Positions 1 to 11,027 of a DNA stretch of 11,190 nucleotides are shown here, piece by piece; within the stretch, counting starts at the first letter, position 1; every line of letters starts with the position of its first letter. A program made the translations under genes and the position numbers. Location: the NCBI GenBank assembly GCA_040752395.1, contig JBFMHD010000037.1, positions 5,404-16,593 on the forward strand. Reading direction: 5' to 3'. The notes under the pieces were generated by a model that was not told the DNA's origin, ran no database searches, and was given only the letters and a program-made list of their open reading frames with translations. Source of the DNA: Candidatus Hydrogenedentota bacterium (GTDB taxonomy: Bacteria; JBFMHD01).

Positions 1-78
1 ATTAAAAGATACGGCAAGGAAGTGTATATTTTCGCTTTCTTTACTTTTAACTTTTGACTTTTTACTTTTAACTTGTCA

Positions 79-145
79 TAGGAGTTAGAAGTTAGGAGTT
101 CGTAATAATAGCTCCGAGCTCCGAACTTTTTCGAAGGAGTCAACA
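79..145 (+). promoter_or_regulatory. Repeated leader element: (GGAGTTA)n ... (GCTCCGA)n hairpin, then a T-run and GAAGGAG Shine-Dalgarno. Copy A sits upstream of a 29-aa sORF
   Basis: AGTTCG(97-102) pairs with CGAACT(122-127), with G-U extensions. TTTTT(128-132) and AGGAG(135-139) follow. Near-identical to 1873-1941. Confidence 0.4.
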
Positions 146-235
146 TGAGCGCGTTTGCGCTCTACACTATTGGGTTCTTGGGTTCTTGCGTTATTGCGTT
201 CTACACAAAGGATGAAAAACTAAAGATGATATGAA
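146..235 (+). CDS. Candidate small ORF (29 aa, hydrophobic: MSAFALYTIGFLGSCVIAFYTKDEKLKMI)
   Basis: ATG lies 6 nt after GAAGGAG, the same leader as the downstream genes. The ORF overlaps a GAGCGC-gttt-GCGCTC hairpin and the GGGTTCTT octamer repeats, so it may be fortuitous. Confidence 0.15.
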
Positions 236-455
236 AAGAGTCACAAGTCGCAAGTCGTGAGTCAAAACAGGACTCAGGACTCAAGACTCAAGACTTTTCA
301 GCCGGCTCCGGGCCTCGGGCTCCAGCCGGCTGTAGTCCGTAGCCTGTAGCCTGTAGCCTGTACTGATACCTCTTACTTCTTCCGTTATCTTGCTTCTTGC
401 TTCTTGCTTCTACTTGATATTATTATAGTTACAATGTTTTTCGAAGGAGAGCCCC
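200..455 (+). repeat. Mosaic intergenic repeat cassette, copy 1. It is a chain of heptamer tandem tracts, then a GC-rich core, then the ATTATTAkAGTTACA-GTTTTTC-AGGAG tail
   Basis: Heptamer tracts: (GTCRYRA)x3, (AGGACTC/AAGACTC)x4, the GGCTCCGGGCCTCGGGCTCCAGCCGGCTG core, (TAGCCTG)x4 and (CTTGCTT)x3. Homologous to 6122-6305 and 10787-11027, with different tandem unit counts. Confidence 0.7.
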
Positions 456-462
456 CATAGAT

Positions 463-1863
463 ATGTATATTAATGAATCCCAGATGCAAAAGATTGTTGA
501 GAAAGTTATAGAGCGACTGAAAGATGCAGGTGAAATCATTATTGATGTTAATAGAGGTGATGGAATATTCGAGGATATAGAATCAGCGATTACAGCTGCT
601 AAAAATGCTCAAAAAACTCTGCTTGAATTATCACTTGAGAAAAGAATAGAGATAATCGAAAGTATGCGTAAATTTGCTCGAACACAGGTTCATCGATTCG
701 CAGTAATGGGCGTTGAAGAGACGGGTATGGGTAGAGTAGAAGATAAGATTGCTAAAAATTTGCTTGCTATAAATAAGACACCAGGTGTTGAAGACCTTAT
801 CCCATGGGTCTGTAGCGGCGACCACGGTCTTACCCTTGAAGAAAAAGCACCGTTTGGTGTTATTGGTTCCATTACTCCGTCCACAAATATTACTGAAACT
901 GTTATTGGCAATGCTATCTGTATGATAGCAGCAGGGAACAGCGTGGTGTTTAATCCTCACCCATCTGCTAAAAGAACAGCACAGGCTGCAATGGTGGTAC
1001 TGAATCAGGCTATAATAAAAGCAGCCGGACCAGCTAACCTTATAACCACAGTAAGAGAGCCAACCTTAAAATCAGCTGAGACTATTTTCACGCATCCTGA
1101 AGTTAAACTCGTACTTGTAACTGGCGGACCTGCTGTTGTTGAAGCAGCTATGAAATATCCTAAACGTTGCATCTGTGCAGGACCAGGAAACCCGCCTGTT
1201 GTTGTAGATGAAACAGCTGATATAAAAAAAGCAGCTAAAGATATAATTTTAGGTGCTACGCTGGATAATAATATTCTGTGCATCGCAGAAAAAGAGATAT
1301 TTGTTGTTGAGCCTGTATGTGATGTGCTTAACTCTGAATTAAAACGTGCCGGTGGATATCAATTGTCAGGGTATCAAATGGACCAATTAATGAAACATAT
1401 TGTTGTTAAAGAGGAAGTGGTGAACAGAGAACTTGTTGGCAGGAATGCTAATGTTATAGCTAAATATATAGGGTTAACTATACCTCAAGAAGTGAGACTA
1501 CTTTTTGCCGAGGTCTCAAAGGAGCATCCGCTTATTTATTTAGAACAGCTTATGCCCGTGATACCTGTTGTCAGAATTAAAAACGTAGAAGAAGGTATAG
1601 AACTATCTCTCAAAGCAGAGCACGGATACAAACACACAGCTATTATGCACTCTAAGAATATCGAGCGGTTATCAAGGATGGCACGTATTATGGATGTATC
1701 TATATTTGTTAAGAATGGGCCTTCCTGTGCAGGTCTTGGTTATGGTGGAGAAGGCTACACTACCTTTTCAATCGCAGGTACAACAGGTGAGGGCTTGACT
1801 ACACCAAAAACATTTACCCGACCCAGACGCTGTACACTGGTAGATTATTTTAGAATCGTATAA
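463..1863 (+). CDS. CoA-acylating aldehyde dehydrogenase, PduP/EutE-type BMC core enzyme, with an N-terminal encapsulation-peptide-like amphipathic helix
   Basis: 466 aa. ICAGPGNPP and NNILCIAEKEIFVVE motifs are typical of acylating ALDH. The N-terminus SQMQKIVEKVIERLKD is amphipathic and precedes the catalytic domain. Confidence 0.88.
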   Translation: MYINESQMQKIVEKVIERLKDAGEIIIDVNRGDGIFEDIESAITAAKNAQKTLLELSLEKRIEIIESMRKFARTQVHRFAVMGVEETGMGRVEDKIAKNLLAINKTPGVEDLIPWVCSGDHGLTLEEKAPFGVIGSITPSTNITETVIGNAICMIAAGNSVVFNPHPSAKRTAQAAMVVLNQAIIKAAGPANLITTVREPTLKSAETIFTHPEVKLVLVTGGPAVVEAAMKYPKRCICAGPGNPPVVVDETADIKKAAKDIILGATLDNNILCIAEKEIFVVEPVCDVLNSELKRAGGYQLSGYQMDQLMKHIVVKEEVVNRELVGRNANVIAKYIGLTIPQEVRLLFAEVSKEHPLIYLEQLMPVIPVVRIKNVEEGIELSLKAEHGYKHTAIMHSKNIERLSRMARIMDVSIFVKNGPSCAGLGYGGEGYTTFSIAGTTGEGLTTPKTFTRPRRCTLVDYFRIV

Positions 1864-1872
1864 GATGAAAAA

Positions 1873-1941
1873 GATAGGAGTTAGGAGTTCGTAATAATAG
1901 ATCCGAGCTCCGAACTCCGAACTCCGAAGTTTTTCGCAGGA
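1873..1941 (+). promoter_or_regulatory. Leader element copy B, a terminator-like hairpin immediately upstream of the SD of the pduS-like gene
   Basis: GGAGTTAGGAGTTCG(1877-1891) pairs with CGAACTCCGAACTCC(1911-1925), 15 bp with one mismatch. Then gaag, TTTTT(1930-1934) and GCAGGAG. Confidence 0.45.
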
Positions 1942-3282
1942 GTGATGGAATACTATATGGTAGAGAAAAAAAGAGATTTAATTGATATAATTAAAGAAGC
2001 AGGGGTTGTGGGCGCTGGCGGTGCTGGATTCCCTACACATATTAAATACAGCACAGAGGTTGAATATGTAATAGCAAATGGTGCCGAGTGCGAACCACTT
2101 CTACGTGTCGATCAACAATTAATGGATAAATATGCAAATGAGATAATACAGGCGTTACTTGCTGTAAAAGAAAGAGTAAAAGCAAAAGAAGCTATGGTGG
2201 GATTAAAATCTAAATATAAAGATGCTATTCGCTCCCTTAAAAAAGCTTCAAAAGATAGAGTAAGATTACATCTTCTTGAGAATGTGTATCCTGCCGGCGA
2301 TGAACATATTCTTCTTTATGATATGACAAAAAGAATCGTTCCAGAAGGTGGCATACCATTGCAGGTCGGCGCTGTTGTCTCTAATGTTGCCACACTTCTG
2401 TGGGTATATGAAGCAATGAATGGTAAACCTGTTACTGATAGGTGGCTGACAGTAACAGGTGAGGTTAATAAACCACAGACTATAAAGGTTCCGATTGGTA
2501 CCACAGTCAGAGATGTGCTGGAGTTTTGTGGCAGAGTAAAGATAAAAGATTTTAAAGTTATTGTTGGTGGACCAATAATGGGGGGTCTGGCTGAGAGTAT
2601 AGATCAAGGGATATTAAAGACTACAAGCGCCATTATTGTTTTACCAAAAGACCATTATGCTGTGTCTTACAAATATTTTGATTTAAATCTACATATCAAA
2701 ACGTCTAAAGCAGCGTGTTGTCAGTGTACATTCTGCACCAGTATTTGTCCGCGCAATTTAATAGGTCATTCAATAGAGCCTCATAAAATAATGAGGGGGA
2801 TATCATTTGGTGTTAATACAGCGGTCAAGGATGCTACGTTAGCTTTTTTATGTTGTGAATGCCAGTTGTGTTATTTCGCCTGTCCGATGAATTTAGCACC
2901 AGGAAGAATTAATGCTCTATTAAAACAGGAATTGACAAAAAAAGGCATAAAGAATCCGCATAATTTGAAACATAACAGGGCCCATATAATAAGAGAATAC
3001 AGGCTTCAACCTCTTAAAAGATTGATTGTTAAACTCGGGTTAACAGACTATGATGTTGATGCTCCTATATCTGATGAAACTTTTTTGCCAAAAAGGGTAA
3101 AAATATCATTGAAACAACATTTTGGCAAAAGTGCTGTTTGTGTGGTAAAAGAAGGGGCTAAAATTAAAAGAGGCGATGTTATAGGTGAAGCTGCTGAGGG
3201 TATATCAGCACGGGTTCATAGCTCTATAGATGGAATTGTAAAGAGTACACAGGGTGATGAGGTTATAATAAGTAGTGGATAA
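1942..3282 (+). CDS. PduS/RnfC-family flavoprotein with two [4Fe-4S] ferredoxin motifs
   Basis: AGVVGAGGAGFPTHIKY and NGAECEP motifs (RnfC/Nqo1-like NADH/FMN domain). Two CxxCxxCxxxCP motifs (CCQCTFCTSICP, CCECQLCYFACP). C-terminal barrel-sandwich-like segment. Start is ambiguous: GTG 1942, ATG 1945 or ATG 1957. Confidence 0.85.
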   Translation: MMEYYMVEKKRDLIDIIKEAGVVGAGGAGFPTHIKYSTEVEYVIANGAECEPLLRVDQQLMDKYANEIIQALLAVKERVKAKEAMVGLKSKYKDAIRSLKKASKDRVRLHLLENVYPAGDEHILLYDMTKRIVPEGGIPLQVGAVVSNVATLLWVYEAMNGKPVTDRWLTVTGEVNKPQTIKVPIGTTVRDVLEFCGRVKIKDFKVIVGGPIMGGLAESIDQGILKTTSAIIVLPKDHYAVSYKYFDLNLHIKTSKAACCQCTFCTSICPRNLIGHSIEPHKIMRGISFGVNTAVKDATLAFLCCECQLCYFACPMNLAPGRINALLKQELTKKGIKNPHNLKHNRAHIIREYRLQPLKRLIVKLGLTDYDVDAPISDETFLPKRVKISLKQHFGKSAVCVVKEGAKIKRGDVIGEAAEGISARVHSSIDGIVKSTQGDEVIISSG

Positions 3283-3298
3283 TCCATTGGTTATAGTT

Positions 3299-3326
3299 AG
3301 AAGCAAGAGGCAAGAAGCAAGATAAC
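3299..3326 (+). repeat. AGAAGCAAGAGGCAAGAAGCAAGATAAC tract, an inverted copy of 384-411
   Basis: Reverse complement of 384-411 with one mismatch. Related tracts at 6128-6150 and 10789-10800. Confidence 0.7.
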
Positions 3327-3361
3327 AGAAGAAGTGAGAAGTAAAGACCAAGGAGAGAACA

Positions 3362-3910
3362 ATGGAACAGGCTTTAGGGTTACTCGAGACAACGAGTGTC
3401 GCGTTAGGTGTTCAGGGTTGTGATGCGATGCTGAAATCAGGTAATGTTATATTGTTGGAGTCACGACCCACGTGTCCGGGTAAGCACTTTACATTAATTT
3501 CAGGTGAGGTCGGTGCTGTAAGAACAGCTATCGCAGCTGGTGAATTAGCTGCCTTCCCATCTGTGGTTCAGACAATGATTATCCCGAATGTTCACCCTTG
3601 TGTTATACCTGCGTTTACAGGTTCTAATATAGTAGAAGAGATAGAGGCTTTAGGTGTGATTGAGACCTATTCTTTAGCAGCCTGTGTTGAGATGGCTGAT
3701 GCAGCAGTAAAAGCTGCTGAAATTAAACTTATTGAAGTGCGATTAGGTTCAGGGCTTGCTGGTAAGTCATTTATATATTTAACAGGTACGGTGGGAGCTG
3801 TGAGGTCTGCTGTTTCTGCTTGTTTATCGCTTGAACATCATAAAGGATTGGTTCACTCAAGTATCATTATACCTTCACCGCATCCTGATTTAATCAAAGC
3901 GATTTTATAA
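3362..3910 (+). CDS. Tandem-BMC-domain shell protein (BMC-T), PduT-like, with the conserved Fe-S ligand Cys38
   Basis: Two BMC (PF00936-like) repeats (ALGLLET...GEVGAVRTAI and ALGVIETYSLAA...GTVGAVRSAV). The PTCPGKHF motif aligns with PduT TICPGKF. The Cys38 codon is tgt at 3473-3475. Confidence 0.88.
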   Translation: MEQALGLLETTSVALGVQGCDAMLKSGNVILLESRPTCPGKHFTLISGEVGAVRTAIAAGELAAFPSVVQTMIIPNVHPCVIPAFTGSNIVEEIEALGVIETYSLAACVEMADAAVKAAEIKLIEVRLGSGLAGKSFIYLTGTVGAVRSAVSACLSLEHHKGLVHSSIIIPSPHPDLIKAIL

Positions 3911-3932
3911 GAATGTCAGTCGACATTCTTTT
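3911..3932 (+). terminator. Intrinsic terminator-like hairpin GAATGTC-agtc-GACATTC followed by TTTT
   Basis: 7-bp perfect stem, 4-nt loop, T-run at 3929-3932, immediately after the pduT-like stop codon. Confidence 0.55.
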
Positions 3933-3971
3933 GGATACGGAACGATATCAGCTTTGCAGGATTAAGGAGTT

Positions 3972-4214
3972 ATGGATAAAGAATATATAGCTTCTGTGAT
4001 AACAGAAGTTATAAATGAAGAGATAAAGATAAAAGATAAACTTACATATCCAGCGAAAGAAGTCGTAAGAGTTGATGAGGTTATCGATGAAAGGATTATA
4101 AGAGATTTAATAAAAGGGAAAGCAGATGTTGTGAAAATAAAAAGTAGCGCAAAGATTACACCGCTTGCAATGGATAGAATAAAAGAGTCTAAAATTAAAG
4201 TTGTGAGAACATAA
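3972..4214 (+). CDS. Small (80 aa) BMC-locus protein of unknown function, with SAF/beta-grasp-like resemblance
   Basis: Strong RBS (AAGGAG, 5 nt before the ATG). The segment IIRDLIKGKADVVKI...AKITPLAMDRIKESKIKVV resembles the SAF-domain pattern xDIxKGxxVxKY...IGxAxxDIxxGExV (as in UxaA_N, FlgA, CpaB). This resemblance comes from memory only. Confidence 0.6.
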   Translation: MDKEYIASVITEVINEEIKIKDKLTYPAKEVVRVDEVIDERIIRDLIKGKADVVKIKSSAKITPLAMDRIKESKIKVVRT

Positions 4215-4215
4215 C

Positions 4216-4509
4216 GTGTTTTTTGCAAAAGTGATAGGTAATGTAGTTGCAACAAAAAAAAACGAAAATCTAAAAGGAAGAAGATTACTTCTTGTTCAGC
4301 CTGTAGACGAAAATATGAAACCCAGGGGGGACCCTGTTATTGCACTTGATTGGCTTGGCACAGATGAAGATGAATTAGTTTTTATAGTTCAGGGGAGAGA
4401 AGCTGTATATGAGGAATCTATGAAAGTAATGATACCAGCTGATGCTGGTATATTTGGTATTATTGATTCAGTGGATACAAAAGATAAGAACCTTTATAGA
4501 AAGCATTAG
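4216..4509 (+). CDS. BMC vertex protein (BMC-P), EutN/PduN/CcmL family, copy 1
   Basis: MFFAKVIGNVVATKK... is the classic EutN N-terminus. 97 aa. GTG start directly follows the upstream TAA stop. Confidence 0.85.
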   Translation: MFFAKVIGNVVATKKNENLKGRRLLLVQPVDENMKPRGDPVIALDWLGTDEDELVFIVQGREAVYEESMKVMIPADAGIFGIIDSVDTKDKNLYRKH

Positions 4510-4522
4510 GCTCGGGGGATGT

Positions 4523-4798
4523 ATGATCCTTTGTAAAGTTGTTGGTGTGGTTGTATCAACACAAAAAAATAAAAAGTTCGAGGGTGTTAAAATTTTTGTT
4601 GTACAGCCGATTAATCCCTCAGGCGAACCTATAGGAAATACTTTAATCTCTGCAGAATATGAGAATGATGCAGGCATCGGAGATACTGTATTAGTATTTA
4701 CTAAAGGGAATGCATCAAGATTAGTTGTAAGGGACCTTTCTTCACCAGTAGATTATGCTATCTGTGGTATTGTTGACAGAATAGAGATGAGTCATTAG
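4523..4798 (+). CDS. BMC vertex protein (BMC-P), EutN/PduN family, copy 2
   Basis: MILCKVVGVVVSTQKN... 91 aa. GGGGGA RBS 5 nt upstream. The 4442 start given in the ORF track is an upstream read-through extension. Confidence 0.85.
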   Translation: MILCKVVGVVVSTQKNKKFEGVKIFVVQPINPSGEPIGNTLISAEYENDAGIGDTVLVFTKGNASRLVVRDLSSPVDYAICGIVDRIEMSH

Positions 4799-4802
4799 TG
4801 GT

Positions 4803-5720
4803 TTACCATCTTTTGCGTTTCCAGAAAAGCATAAACCATACCATCGCAAGCAGAGCTATTAACATTATAATCCAGAAAGAAGAAAGACGCTCTTGAGAAA
4901 TAGGTAGCGGTACATTCATTGAGAAGATACTAACAACAAGTGTGGGAACCATAATTGAGATGGTAATAATATTCAAGGTTTTCATCAAAATATTAAGATT
5001 ATTATTTACGATTGAGGCACGGGCATCCATTAATCCTGCTAAAATATTTGAATATATTTCAGCTTGTTTATAACATTGAGAGTTTTCAATTGCTATATCA
5101 TCAAGTAGTTCAAGATTTTCCTGCGTGAGAACAATTTTGGTTGCATTATGTCTTATTTTTTCAATCAGCATAGAATTGGAATTAATAGAATTTAGATAAT
5201 AAACAAGACTCTTTTCAAGAGTGAATAAATTAAGGAGGTATTTATTTTCCATAGCATGAATTAATTTTTTTTCAAGTGAATCTGATACCATATTTATGAC
5301 CTTTAAATGTTCAAGATAATGATGGATTGAGCGATAGATAAGTCTGAGTAATAAATCCTGTAAAGACGTTATACGATTAAAGAGTTTTCCATCAAATAAT
5401 AAAGTGTTATCGGGTAAAATAACGATTAAATGTTCTTTAAAAAGAAAGAGTCCGACAGAATAGACCTTGAATAAAAATTTATCACTTGATGAATAGTTTT
5501 TAGGTTTTTTATAGATTATAGCGATATGCTCAGGCTCGAACTCCAATCGTGATAGCTCATCAGGGTCCAGAGCGGAATTAAGAGTGTGTTCATCGAGCTC
5601 GAATTCATCTAATAGATATTTTCTTTCAGCTTCATCAGGATTGACAAAGACTAAAATTTTAGCATCACCATCCGGGGCTTCTACGATTTTATCACCGAGT
5701 ATAAGATACTTTCTTAACAT
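4803..5720 (-). CDS. CorA-family divalent-cation transporter with an SMN motif in place of the canonical GMN
   Basis: 305 aa. C-terminal TM1-loop-TM2-KRKRW topology. The loop reads VVSIFSMNVPLP; the codon TCA=Ser was confirmed on the reverse strand at 4920-4946. Confidence 0.82.
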   Translation of the reverse strand: MLRKYLILGDKIVEAPDGDAKILVFVNPDEAERKYLLDEFELDEHTLNSALDPDELSRLEFEPEHIAIIYKKPKNYSSSDKFLFKVYSVGLFLFKEHLIVILPDNTLLFDGKLFNRITSLQDLLLRLIYRSIHHYLEHLKVINMVSDSLEKKLIHAMENKYLLNLFTLEKSLVYYLNSINSNSMLIEKIRHNATKIVLTQENLELLDDIAIENSQCYKQAEIYSNILAGLMDARASIVNNNLNILMKTLNIITISIMVPTLVVSIFSMNVPLPISQERLSSFWIIMLIALLAMVWFMLFWKRKRW

Positions 5721-5753: not shown

Positions 5754-6050
5754 TCACATTCTACGTTTAACAAGATGCGGTACCTCACGTTTTAGTATGC
5801 CGTTTAAAATACCATAAAGAGCTCTCTCGATATTTGGACGGTCAGTATTTGGAGGCAACGTAAGATCAAGTTTAATACGCGCTGAATCAATCAACATATT
5901 GTGAACCTTAATACCCATAATAATTATGTTTCTTTCTAACTGTTTTCTAATCCGATGTTTTAATCCCTCTGAGAGCCGTGAACGGCTCGCACGATCAGGC
6001 ATACTAAATGAAAGCTTAAGCTCAATGTTAACCCTTCGAATTACTTGCAT
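5754..6050 (-). CDS. Small hypothetical protein with a weak RbfA-like (ribosome-binding factor A) pattern
   Basis: 98 aa. Immediately upstream and co-oriented with the CorA gene. The patterns MPDRASRSRLSEGLKHRIRKQLE and ERALYGILNGILKREVPHL loosely match the RbfA N- and C-terminal motifs. An internal ATG at 6002 is an alternative start. Confidence 0.4.
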   Translation of the reverse strand: MQVIRRVNIELKLSFSMPDRASRSRLSEGLKHRIRKQLERNIIIMGIKVHNMLIDSARIKLDLTLPPNTDRPNIERALYGILNGILKREVPHLVKRRM

Positions 6051-6121
6051 AAATAATATCTTAACATATATGAAAATATTGTCTATAATTTATTTGACAT
6101 AATTCCCTCGCTTATAGGTTG

Positions 6122-6305
6122 TAAGAAGTAAGAAGCAAGAGGCAAGAAGTAGATAATATGTTGGCTCCGGGCTTGGGGTTCCAGACTCCAGCCGGCTGTA
6201 GTCCGTAGCCTGAAGCCTGTAGCCCGAAGAGATGTTTTTTTAATTTTTCATAGTAGGAGGTTATCAGTAAACAGAAAACCGAAAACCAAACACCGAACTT
6301 AAGAA
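6122..6305 (+). repeat. Mosaic intergenic repeat cassette, copy 2 (partial)
   Basis: It contains AGAAGCAAGAGGCAAGAAG, the GGCTCCGGGCTTGGGG...CAGCCGGCTGTAGTCCGTAGCC core, a T-run plus AGGAGG, (AAACCGA)n and ACACCGAACTTAAGAA (6290-6305). The last box matches 11012-11027. Confidence 0.65.
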
Positions 6306-6332
6306 TTTTACCGAAGACTGAAGGAATACTAG

Positions 6333-6367
6333 TTGACTTTGTAAAAAAATTAGTTATTATATAATCA
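6333..6367 (+). promoter_or_regulatory. Putative sigma70-like promoter for smpB (TTGACT ... TTATATAAT), which may give a leaderless mRNA
   Basis: TTGACT at 6333-6338. A TATATAAT-like -10 ends about 4 nt before the smpB ATG. No SD is present. Confidence 0.35.
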
Positions 6368-6811
6368 ATGAAAGTTATAACAGTTAATAAGAAAGCTGGG
6401 TTTAATTATCAAATATTTGAAAGGTTTGAAGCTGGTATAGTTCTTAAAGGTAGTGAGGTAAAATCAATAAGAGAAGGTAATATAAATTTAAAAGATGGTT
6501 ATTGTATAATGAAGGCAGATGAATTATATCTTATAAATGTGCATATATCAAGGTATAAGCCATCAGGAGTATTGAATCATGAACCTGAACGGGCACGAAA
6601 AATGCTCCTTCATAAAAGAGAATTAAAAAGATTGACAGGAAAGATCAATGAGAGAGGGTTAAGTATTATACCATTAAAGGTTTATATAAATCAAAAAGGC
6701 AGAATCAAAGTTGAGATAGGTTTAGCTAAGGGGAAAAGTAAGATTGATAAACGTGAGGATTTAAGAAAAAGAGCTATTGATAGAGAGATTGAGAGAGAGT
6801 TAAAGTATTGA
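6368..6811 (+). CDS. smpB: SsrA-binding protein SmpB
   Basis: 147 aa. KKAGFNYQIFERFEAGIVLKGSEVKSIREGNINLKDGY matches the SmpB signature. A basic C-terminal tail is present. The tmRNA gene follows on the same strand. Confidence 0.95.
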   Translation: MKVITVNKKAGFNYQIFERFEAGIVLKGSEVKSIREGNINLKDGYCIMKADELYLINVHISRYKPSGVLNHEPERARKMLLHKRELKRLTGKINERGLSIIPLKVYINQKGRIKVEIGLAKGKSKIDKREDLRKRAIDREIERELKY

Positions 6812-6850
6812 CGAATCTAAAGTATTATAGTAATATATAAAATTATAGGA

Positions 6851-6969
6851 GACAGAAGACAGAAGTTAAAAAGATACAAAGATTGAAAGATTCAAATGCA
6901 TTTTAACTTTTAATAGGAGGGTAAATAAATTTGCAATTTGCAATTTACAATGGAGCAAAGCGACAAGAA
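6851..6969 (+). repeat. Phase-coherent chain of heptamer tandem tracts upstream of the tmRNA
   Basis: (GACAGAA)x2, AAGATTG/AAAGATT, ATTTTAA/CTTTTAA, (AATTTGC)x3 and a GGAGCAAAGCGACA box (6952-6965). Confidence 0.6.
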
Positions 6970-6971
6970 AG

Positions 6972-7370
<399 letters not shown>

Positions 7371-7472
7371 GCTGACCTTATGGGAGGAAGAGTTCACAAG
7401 GATGTGAATAGAAGAAAATCACCGTGCCTGGAGCGAAGCGACAGCCGGAGTCGAACGAGAGTGAGCTAAAAG

Positions 7473-8177
7473 ATGAAGAATAAACCATCAGTTATAGGTG
7501 TTGTTCTGATTTTTTGCCTGCTACTTTTTAGTAACACTGATTGTATAAAAGCTCAGACTGCAAAAATATTGAGAGTTTGCATAGACCCGGGGCATGGTGG
7601 CGAAGATAGCGGCGTACCTGGTATGGCCGAACTCTTGGAAAAAGATGTTACTTTACAGATAGCAAAAAGAGTAAAGGAACAATTATCAGGTTATCCGAAT
7701 GTTGATATCGTGCTTACAAGAACGCTTGATATAACGTTAAACGATAAAGAAAGAATAAAAAGAATCTTTAACTCTCAACCCTCTCTGGTTATTTCATTAC
7801 ATACAGATGCTTCTTTAGATACAACTCTATCAGGAATAACAATATATAGTCTTGAAAACATAGTATCACCAATTTTAGGAAATGAACAAAAACAAGAAAT
7901 AATTAATAAAACATATAATGCTGCTGAAATAATTTACCAGATTTTTATTAAAAATATAATTTCTTTTGGCGTGAGCAAGCCGATAAAAGCGGATTTAGCG
8001 ACATATAGGAAGATAGGTCTCCCTGTAATTATGATTAATGCTGGATTTATAACTAATGCTGCTGATGAACTTATTATTTCAAAACCCGAGGGTTTAGAAG
8101 AGATAGCAAATAGTATCTCACAGGCAATTATTGGTTTAGAATCCCTCTTTATGGAATCTGTGCAATCAGAAAATTGA
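7473..8177 (+). CDS. N-acetylmuramoyl-L-alanine amidase (Amidase_3 family), secreted
   Basis: 234 aa. N-terminal signal peptide. The CIDPGHGGEDSG and SLHTDAS motifs are the Amidase_3 zinc-ligand signatures. Confidence 0.85.
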   Translation: MKNKPSVIGVVLIFCLLLFSNTDCIKAQTAKILRVCIDPGHGGEDSGVPGMAELLEKDVTLQIAKRVKEQLSGYPNVDIVLTRTLDITLNDKERIKRIFNSQPSLVISLHTDASLDTTLSGITIYSLENIVSPILGNEQKQEIINKTYNAAEIIYQIFIKNIISFGVSKPIKADLATYRKIGLPVIMINAGFITNAADELIISKPEGLEEIANSISQAIIGLESLFMESVQSEN

Positions 8178-8185
8178 TTTTTATT

Positions 8186-8420
8186 CAAGGGTTGAGGCAC
8201 TGCCAGAGAAGAATCTTATCTGCGGAATTTTTGCAATTCGTACAGAATTTTTGCTTTCGAGTCTGGCGTCTGAAGCATACGAATGGAGAATGGGTTGAGG
8301 CACTGCCTCATCCGTCTCTTTGCCAACAAAATTTCGCTTTTTGCATAGAGAATTCGCTTTTGCTGTATGGCATAGCAGATACCGAATGGTAGAATGGGTT
8401 GAGGCACTGCCTCATAATAC
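8186..8420. repeat. Three diverged ~104-bp tandem units, each carrying the palindrome TGAGGCA-c-TGCCTCA
   Basis: Palindromes at 8193-8207 (imperfect, right arm TGCCAGA), 8296-8310 and 8400-8414 (both perfect). Spacing is 103 and 104 bp. The units also share CGAATGG(T)AGAATGGG and GAATTTTTGC-like subrepeats. The period is not divisible by 3. Confidence 0.75.
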
Positions 8421-10786: not shown

Positions 10787-11027
10787 TAGAAGCAAGAGGC
10801 ACAAAGGCACAGAGGCACAAAGTATGAAAAGAGTCGTGAGTCAAAACAGGACTCGAGACTCAAGACTCAAGACTTTTTAGCAGGCTCCGGGCTTCGGGCT
10901 CCAGCCGGCTGTAGTCCGTAGCCCGTAGCCTGTACCCCGAATTATTAGAGTTACAGCGTTTTTCAGAGGAGCGAAGCGACAATTAGGTTATCGGTGAACT
11001 GACCACCTAACACCGAACTTAAGAAAC
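10787..11027 (+). repeat. Mosaic intergenic repeat cassette, copy 3
   Basis: AGAAGCAAGAGGCAC, (GAGGCAC/AAGGCAC)x3, ATGAAAAGAGTC...(GACTCAA)n...GGCTCCGGGCTTCGGGCTCCAGCCGGCTGTAGTCCGTAGCC, ATTATTAGAGTTACAGCGTTTTTCAGAGGAG, GGAGCGAAGCGACA and ACACCGAACTTAAGAA. Collinear with copy 1 but with fewer tandem units. Confidence 0.7.

Follow-up and report, generated by a model that had tools for sequence, protein, structure and literature searches.

Which kind of microcompartment is encoded by a locus that holds an aldehyde-oxidising enzyme, a redox pair and shell vertices, but no shell hexamer and no enzyme that would supply the aldehyde? This question is raised by a stretch of 11,190 nucleotides from a Candidatus Hydrogenedentota bacterium (NCBI GenBank assembly GCA_040752395.1, contig JBFMHD010000037.1, positions 5,404 to 16,593 of the forward strand), hereafter called the window and numbered from its first letter. 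Listing of the open reading frames (ORFs) and profile searches placed six co-oriented genes at 463-4798 of the + strand, encoding in this order a CoA-acylating aldehyde dehydrogenase (ALDH), a PduS-like protein, a PduT-like protein, a protein of 80 amino acids and two BMC-P vertex proteins of a bacterial microcompartment (BMC). The original prediction, made from the sequence alone, had described these genes as BMC cargo, electron-relay and shell genes, and the profile searches confirmed this far beyond chance, the shell-like proteins being genuine BMC-domain proteins (two PF00936 and two PF03319 domains). It had also pointed out that BMC-H, a signature enzyme, phosphotransacylase (PTAC) and alcohol dehydrogenase are missing from the window, on which tblastn and the Pfam annotation of the ORFs agreed: tblastn queries with PduA, a relative's BMC-H, PTAC, RpiB and DERA detected none of these in the window beyond the two halves of the tandem-BMC gene, neither DERA (deoxyribose-5-phosphate aldolase, pfam01791; tblastn E>0.5) nor an RpiB-type ribose-5-phosphate isomerase (RPI, pfam02502) was recognized by Pfam in any ORF, and no alcohol dehydrogenase, signature enzyme, PduCDE or EutBC was present among the window ORFs, nor did PduCDE or EutBC show up where the relatives' flanks were annotated. 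We propose that the window probably carries the core-enzyme and redox part, together with two vertex proteins, of a split aldehyde-oxidising metabolosome of FRAG7/SPU-like type, the PTAC and BMC-H genes of which would lie just upstream and have been lost at a break in the assembly or at the window edge.

The close relatives of the locus were three short contigs only, L161, L162 and L163 (80-84% protein identity overall, 77% for PduS). On L161 (Logan SRR22388273) a BMC-H gene, present with its 3' portion, was followed by a spacer, an ALDH gene (82% identity) and a fragment of a PduS gene (77%), on L162 (JGI) the C-terminus of PTAC preceded BMC-H and ALDH (84%), and on L163, from the same sample as L161, PduT (80%) was followed by a gene for an 83-amino-acid homolog of the 80-amino-acid protein and then by an unrelated nuclease-like gene. 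Taken together, these layouts indicate PTAC - BMC-H - ALDH - PduS - PduT - small protein as the ancestral order of the lineage. The same order was found in L017 (Hydrogenedentes CG07_land_8_20_14_0_80_42_17), whose ALDH is 49% identical to that of the window and in which the last position is taken by a gene for a 161-amino-acid PduM/TIGR02536-like protein. In the loci with the next-nearest ALDHs (53-58% identity; L081, L001, L003-L006, L083 and L008) the order was PTAC - BMC-H - PduM-like - ALDH - PduS - PduT, with a BMC-H - RpiB - DERA block 0.1-4 kb downstream wherever the flank was long enough, DERA being 1.4-4 kb away in L081, L003, L005 and L008. BMC-H was located at most about 1.3 kb upstream of ALDH in every relative with enough flank (from 82% to 49% ALDH identity). 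Since relatives at 49-84% ALDH identity keep both PTAC and BMC-H immediately upstream of ALDH, the absence of these genes from the window is most probably an edge effect, and, judged from this synteny, they most probably adjoin ALDH in this genome too. A difference in base composition was observed as well: the window has 36% GC (39% in the BMC genes) as compared to 54-58% in L161-L163, a shift of about 20 points despite 77-84% protein identity.

The ALDH, which is 100% identical to NCBI MEW5692360.1, scored 646 bits against the NCBIfam model NF011927 for EutE-type acylating ALDHs (cut-off 403); the products of the adjacent genes have NCBI accessions that run on consecutively from it. Homology to the crystallised PduP-type enzymes (4c3s, 5jfl) began at residue 32-34, so that residues 1-33 form an N-terminal extension, and this extension contains the amphipathic helix KIVEKVIERLKDAG with a hydrophobic moment (muH) of 0.70. 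Encapsulation peptides usually have this form, and the original prediction had already noticed the helix as resembling one. The catalytic cysteine is found in ...NILCIAEKE..., the ...CIAEKE... context being conserved. The best identity in GTDB representative genomes and metagenome contig collections was 58%. A neighbour-joining (NJ) tree, calculated for 143 ALDHs of the retrieved loci without bootstrap and without catalogue reference sequences, placed the window ALDH within a clade of 17 members (SPU/HO-type) together with those of L161, L082 and L001/L003-6/L083. This clade held 10 of the 11 RpiB/DERA-bearing loci in the tree sample; the remaining 113 ALDHs of the tree, mostly from Clostridia, came from other locus layouts.

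The comparison with catalogued microcompartment types gave two near neighbours, FRAG7 and SPU. FRAG7 comprises two loci, both from Candidatus Hydrogenedentes and one of them from the L017 genome (Sutter et al. 2021 supplement, PMC8217296). It is split: BMC-H, PTAC, AldDh (aldehyde dehydrogenase), PduS-T and a pfam02441 flavoprotein are encoded together, the BMC-P triplet at a separate site; its AldDh has an N-terminal encapsulation peptide and is closest to those of HO and SPU3, and no signature enzyme is assigned (PMC8217296). The window resembles FRAG7 in the phylum (eight window proteins are named Candidatus Hydrogenedentota by NCBI), in an AldDh with N-terminal encapsulation peptide adjoining a PduS-PduT pair with neither an alcohol dehydrogenase nor an obvious signature enzyme in the vicinity, and in a fragmented locus with the order ALDH-PduS-PduT-small ITPLARD protein of L017. 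By contrast, its ALDH groups nearer to the ALDHs of SPU loci than to that of L017, its two BMC-P genes follow the block directly instead of forming a separate triplet, and three components of FRAG7 are missing from the window, BMC-H, PTAC and the pfam02441 flavoprotein, the last according to Pfam annotation of the ORFs. SPU (sugar-phosphate utilising) metabolosomes are widespread, their defining families being pfam01791 (DERA) and pfam02502 (RpiB) (PMC8217296). DERA is the universal signature enzyme of the type. All SPU loci carry AldDh, a PduS homolog is found in all subtypes but SPU6 and PTAC in SPU1/4/7, and BMC-P triplets are the rule; the proposed pathway leads from deoxyribose-5-phosphate to acetaldehyde and glyceraldehyde 3-phosphate (DERA) and on to acetyl-CoA (AldDh) (Dwyer, Sutter & Kerfeld 2024, PMC11585597). 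The window shares with SPU an ALDH from the clade of DERA- and RpiB-bearing loci, the presence of PduS and of multiple BMC-P paralogs, and the order PTAC-BMC-H-...-ALDH-PduS-BMC-T^S of L081, L003, L005 and L008, which matches that of the window and its closest relatives, whereas DERA and RPI are not in the window and the BMC-P genes number two, not the usual three, of which the third may lie elsewhere in the genome. Thus, of the proposal that this is a minimal type unlike PDU or EUT organisation, the second part held, the locus being neither PDU nor EUT, while the minimal type was not supported and the gene set is not unusual for the phylum, being already catalogued as FRAG7 and, with DERA/RPI, as SPU. 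In L017, a 5'-nucleotidase/metallophosphoesterase gene (6232-7809) was observed on the same strand 3' of the BMC block, a neighbour that would fit a nucleotide/deoxyribose-scavenging role for FRAG7.

In the PduS-like protein of the redox pair, profile searches recognized an FMN/NADH-binding Complex1_51K domain (6e-43), SLBB, a Fer4 dicluster (Fer4_17) and a C-terminal RnfC_N barrel; two CxxCxxCxxxCP motifs for [4Fe-4S] clusters can be read in the translation, and the closest solved relatives in the PDB were RnfC structures. Its start is ambiguous (GTG 1942, ATG 1945 or ATG 1957), the NCBI start differing from 1942. The PduT-like gene begins 79 nt past the PduS stop; the best PDB matches of this tandem-BMC protein were the PduT-type structures 3nwg, 3pac and 3n79, and its pore cysteine lies in 'PTCPGKH', aligned with 'PVCPGKY' of 3nwg. 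Outside PDU, the gene of a PduS homolog consistently adjoins that of a PduT homolog whose pore motif is CP(G/S)K, and it does so in AldDh-containing loci, 361 of the AldDh loci with such a pair being without alcohol dehydrogenase (Sutter et al. 2024, PNAS, PMC11626177). The pair, renamed MNdh (metabolosome NADH dehydrogenase) and BMC-T^SE, passes NADH electrons through three 4Fe-4S clusters to the shell exterior (PMC11626177). With FMN/NADH, SLBB and two [4Fe-4S] modules in the PduS-like protein, a CPGK-type PduT homolog adjoining it, and an AldDh locus without alcohol dehydrogenase or B12 enzymes around it, the window pair is, by its domains and motifs, a match to this module in every feature, and no structural difference was seen; the activity itself is known from the Clostridium botulinum GRM1 pair, that is, from another lineage (PMC11626177). 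The Fe-S relay for an encapsulated chemistry other than a B12-dependent one, which the original prediction had suggested, is thus supported by domains and motifs and was already published as the MNdh/BMC-T^SE module of NAD+ regeneration (PMC11626177).

Table 1. Coordinates of the microcompartment genes and repeat elements in the window.
Feature	Positions	Strand	Evidence
CoA-acylating aldehyde dehydrogenase (PduP/EutE type)	463-1863	+	PF00171 E=1e-32; NCBIfam NF011927
PduS-like metabolosome NADH dehydrogenase (MNdh)	1942-3282	+	Complex1_51K, SLBB, Fer4, RnfC_N
PduT-like tandem-BMC trimer protein (BMC-T^SE)	3362-3910	+	PF00936 x2, E=5e-43
80-aa ORF, no named family	3972-4214	+	MEW5692363.1, locus tag AB1765_03600
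BMC-P (EutN/CcmL) vertex pentamer paralog 1	4216-4509	+	PF03319, 3e-25
BMC-P vertex pentamer paralog 2	4520-4798	+	PF03319, 4e-21
Non-coding spacer 5' of ALDH, 7-8-nt tandem arrays	1-462	.	sequence, TRF
Intra-operon heptamer-array hairpin, ALDH-PduS	1866-1941	+	fold; then UUUUUCGCAGGAG and PduS start
Repeat mosaics of the window	36-412, 1866-1941, 3298-3343, 6121-6297, 6850-6951, 10797-10946		

The 80-amino-acid protein matched no Pfam or NCBIfam family, even at E<=10, and HMMER, run exhaustively against 1.84 billion representatives, returned one true homolog, the 83-amino-acid protein P0258 (35% identity), in addition to two low-complexity matches. P0258 holds the same position after PduT in L163, and this conserved position argues for a real, fast-evolving BMC accessory protein. 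Moreover, the protein shares a beta-alpha module of about 45 residues with an invariant I-T-P-x-A ('...V.i....IITPLARD....gI.i') with BMC-associated proteins: the module occurs twice in the 161-amino-acid protein of L017, at the C-terminus of a 273-amino-acid protein of L003 and at the N-terminus of EutQ, and the proteins of the relatives that contain it were weak TIGR02536/PduM matches. The AlphaFold2 model, calculated from two input sequences, was only of moderate quality (pLDDT 67.6); it predicted a helix at the N-terminus (3-16) and, after a disordered linker, a small beta-alpha-beta-alpha-beta domain (pLDDT 72-84). No solved structure in the PDB was matched significantly by Foldseek, which found nothing below E = 0.015. 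In a hydrophobic-moment test the N-terminus was not clearly singled out as an encapsulation peptide. On the basis of module and position, the protein is probably a shortened positional counterpart of the PduM/TIGR02536-like proteins, with a probable role in assembly or as an adaptor. The BMC-P paralogs are 29% identical to each other. For paralog 1 there were only six database matches, all at 49% identity or less and in contexts of other BMC types that were uninformative; it is 52% identical to the BMC-P encoded after ALDH in L010 and L085. Paralog 2 most likely starts at ATG 4520, where the Pfam match runs from residue 2 and AGGAGG lies 6 nt upstream, and not at the first ATG, 4442.

The region in front of ALDH, described in the original prediction as 460 bp of repeats and not a gene, was indeed found to hold no convincing gene: according to the sequence and Tandem Repeats Finder (TRF), it consists of tandem arrays with units of 7-8 nt, which pair to form long hairpins, and it ends in the Shine-Dalgarno context UUUUUCGAAGGAG (437-449). 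Its folding was more stable than expected on the + strand (z = -4.3; -3.5 for 36-130 and -4.95 for 225-300), and no Rfam family was recognized in it, the only Rfam match in the window being tmRNA. Bases 1-57 were considered as the tail of an upstream BMC-H gene and rejected, as their translations were unlike the BMC-H C-termini of the relatives. Nearly all intergenic regions, including both intra-operon spacers, hold 7-8-nt repeat arrays with differing units. Many arrays are paired with a roughly complementary array, giving hairpins of 6-bp segments with a mismatch at each seventh position (z -3.5 to -5.4), and a common ribosome-binding context, UUUUUCG(A/C)AGGAG, is found 3' of the repeat hairpins. 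Modules recur at 81-93% identity (253-358 with 10832-10937; 83-127 with 1872-1916; 304-367 with 6170-6233 and 10883-10946), and 367-412 is an inverted copy of 3298-3343. The hairpin between ALDH and PduS, which is 93% identical to module 83-127, has a folding energy (dG) of -25.7 kcal/mol (z -4.0). The arrays were not found in the Hydrogenedentes relative L017 or in L161-L163, and the closest precedent found in the literature is the intergenic heptamer direct repeats of Beggiatoaceae and cyanobacteria (PMC4679880). A role of the arrays in RNA stability, processing or attenuation is a guess. Within the spacer, at 126-234, the hairpin module and UUUUUCGAAGGAG context found in front of ALDH and PduS recur before a mini-ORF of 29 codons (145-234; MSAFALYTIGFLGSCVIAFYTKDEKLKMI); this ORF may not be a real gene because it consists mostly of the 8-nt array TTGCGTTC.

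Several observations weigh against the proposed split FRAG7/SPU-like metabolosome with PTAC and BMC-H just upstream. Among the best 120 matches to a relative's BMC-H in the protein database, where the BMC-H of this lineage would be expected, none came from the source contig, so that BMC-H is probably not on this contig. The spacer before ALDH has 460 nt here as compared to a plain 70 nt in L161, and the gene order differs from that of every relative examined, in that two BMC-P genes follow the small protein, whereas no BMC-P gene was detected in the relatives' flanks (up to 10 kb), even at relaxed thresholds. Neither DERA nor RpiB was found in the window or on the three short contigs of the closest relatives, the substrate would be assigned from the ALDH phylogeny alone, in a tree that carries no support values, and the FRAG7 type has no assigned signature enzyme. 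The first of these points could be accounted for by the spacer itself: repeat region 1-462 is probably the place of an assembly or window break, and a break in the assembly at this repeat-laden spacer is the likeliest reason for BMC-H being off the contig, because its modules recur elsewhere in the window. Some of these observations lend themselves to a true satellite locus, in which PTAC and BMC-H no longer adjoin the ALDH-MNdh-BMC-T^SE block, two BMC-P genes have become attached to it, and a distant main locus encodes BMC-H and the remaining enzymes, so that scattered loci together build one organelle. A main locus holds both BMC-H and BMC-P, all else being satellite, and satellite loci as well as the rule that FRAG6 and FRAG7 occur as split loci are treated in the catalogue (PMC8217296). 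The missing contig BMC-H and the order, changed with respect to L163, L017 and L003 by the appended BMC-P genes, would follow directly from this explanation, and the mosaic modules before ALDH, since they recur in the window, could mediate the rearrangement. Moreover, satellite blocks of ALDH and two BMC-P genes exist: L010 (Latescibacterota; 10001-13256) carries an ALDH gene (52% identity), directly behind it two BMC-P genes and then a class II aldolase-like gene, with no BMC-H, PduS or PTAC within 10 kb on either side, a clear satellite arrangement of HO/ACI-like kind. It differs from the window in lacking PduS/PduT and in the aldolase-like gene that follows its BMC-P pair. Assemblies typically break in spacers that are rich in repeats, so that the lack of a gene on the contig is no evidence against its presence nearby, and the close spacing of BMC-H and ALDH in every relative with enough flank speaks against a distant main locus. 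We therefore consider a true satellite a possible but rather unlikely origin of the locus.

The remaining explanations fit the data less well. A classic PDU, EUT or glycyl-radical (GRM) operon that ends in the window and has its signature enzymes upstream of position 1 might be thought of because PduP/EutE-type ALDH, PduS, PduT and BMC-P co-occur in PDU and GRM loci, and the NCBIfam names point to Eut/Pdu families; the window encodes homologs of PduP, the corrin-reductase-type flavoprotein PduS, the Fe-S BMC-T protein PduT and the vertex protein PduN of Salmonella, and its ALDH has an N-terminal encapsulation peptide in the style of PduP/PduD. However, diol dehydratase, B12 recycling genes, PduQ, PduL and PduA-type genes are missing from it, the ALDH clusters with SPU/HO-type enzymes, apart from the sampled Clostridia-type loci, and the loci of relatives begin at PTAC with unrelated genes upstream (a divergent alpha/beta hydrolase gene in L017; response regulator, Era, Lpt and S41 peptidase genes in L003), synteny and ALDH phylogeny thus pointing elsewhere. 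Additionally, the catalogue type of this phylum has no B12 or glycyl-radical enzyme (PMC8217296). A canonical operon upstream, which the original prediction had named as the finding that would overturn it, is therefore highly improbable when judged on the relatives, which show no canonical PDU or EUT locus there, although a weaker form of it applies, the window being the downstream part of a longer operon of known type. Equally improbable is a self-sufficient minimal compartment without BMC-H, with a shell of BMC-T and BMC-P, or the decaying remnant of a lost organelle. The window on its own has no BMC-H and no close BMC-H from this metagenome-assembled genome (MAG) surfaced in the protein search, but described BMC shells use BMC-H for their facets (as summarised in PMC8217296), all six ORFs are intact with catalytic cysteine, Fe-S motifs and pore motif conserved, and the MAG is a draft of short contigs. 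More speculatively, the lineage may have rebuilt a fragmented metabolosome, the block having been cut from PTAC/BMC-H at the heptamer-repeat mosaic and fused to vertex genes, to give a FRAG7-type organelle with a signature enzyme other than DERA and with the 80-amino-acid ITPxA protein as a new minimal assembly factor; we regard this combination as improbable, if less so than a PDU-like operon end or a minimal shell.

For the split FRAG7/SPU-like metabolosome the following function can be proposed, in which domains and motifs were observed and the chemistry is taken from characterised homologs. The ALDH would be brought into the shell by its N-terminal encapsulation peptide and would convert a volatile aldehyde, most likely acetaldehyde, with CoA and NAD+ to the acyl-CoA and NADH. 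As the locus has no alcohol dehydrogenase, MNdh would move the electrons of NADH via FMN and its two 4Fe-4S clusters to the 4Fe-4S cluster in the pore of BMC-T^SE, from where they would exit the shell, NAD+ being regenerated inside. The two BMC-P paralogs would cap the shell vertices, and the 80-amino-acid protein would probably aid assembly. BMC-H, phosphotransacylase and the signature enzyme that generates the aldehyde would be encoded outside the window, PTAC and BMC-H most probably just upstream of the repeat spacer; the signature enzyme is probably the DERA/RpiB pair elsewhere in the genome, with deoxyribose-5-phosphate as the source of acetaldehyde and glyceraldehyde 3-phosphate.

At its 3' side the locus ends, as had been predicted, at a convergent CorA gene, the stop codon of which lies 4 nt from that of BMC-P paralog 2 (4795-4806). 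With only 4 nt between the two stops there is no space for a terminator of each gene, and the two transcripts must overlap at their 3' ends. The other ORFs and genes of the window encode a 98-amino-acid hypothetical protein, SmpB, tmRNA, an amidase, a GerM-like protein and LptC/A/B. The 98-amino-acid ORF (5754-6050, - strand; NCBI hypothetical MEW5692367.1, AB1765_03620), flanked by CorA and by the repeat-rich region that precedes smpB, matched no Pfam or NCBIfam family. Directly behind smpB (6368-6811) lies the gene for tmRNA (6972-7333; Rfam RF00023, 177 bits; tag peptide ANTELALAA); the two form an ordinary housekeeping pair. Between the amidase and GerM-like genes (8190-8415), the 16-nt motif GGGTTGAGGCACTGCC occurs three times at a spacing of 103-104 nt, the sequence between the copies being poorly conserved; the motif may serve for the binding of a regulator or be left over from a repeated element. 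Promoter-like sites were no commoner in the window than in shuffled sequence, and terminator-like sites were slightly above it (7 vs 4.1 +/- 1.9), none of them at an operon boundary.

The understanding of microcompartments as such is unchanged by this locus, since the missing BMC-H and companion enzymes are best explained by where the sequence was cut. It adds one more example from Hydrogenedentota to a thinly sampled BMC type, FRAG7 having been represented by two loci in the 2021 catalogue, and it places the MNdh/BMC-T^SE electron-export module in a further locus without alcohol dehydrogenase. Furthermore, it ties the FRAG7 type to the SPU clade of ALDHs, which supports a role in the scavenging of nucleic acids and deoxyribose.

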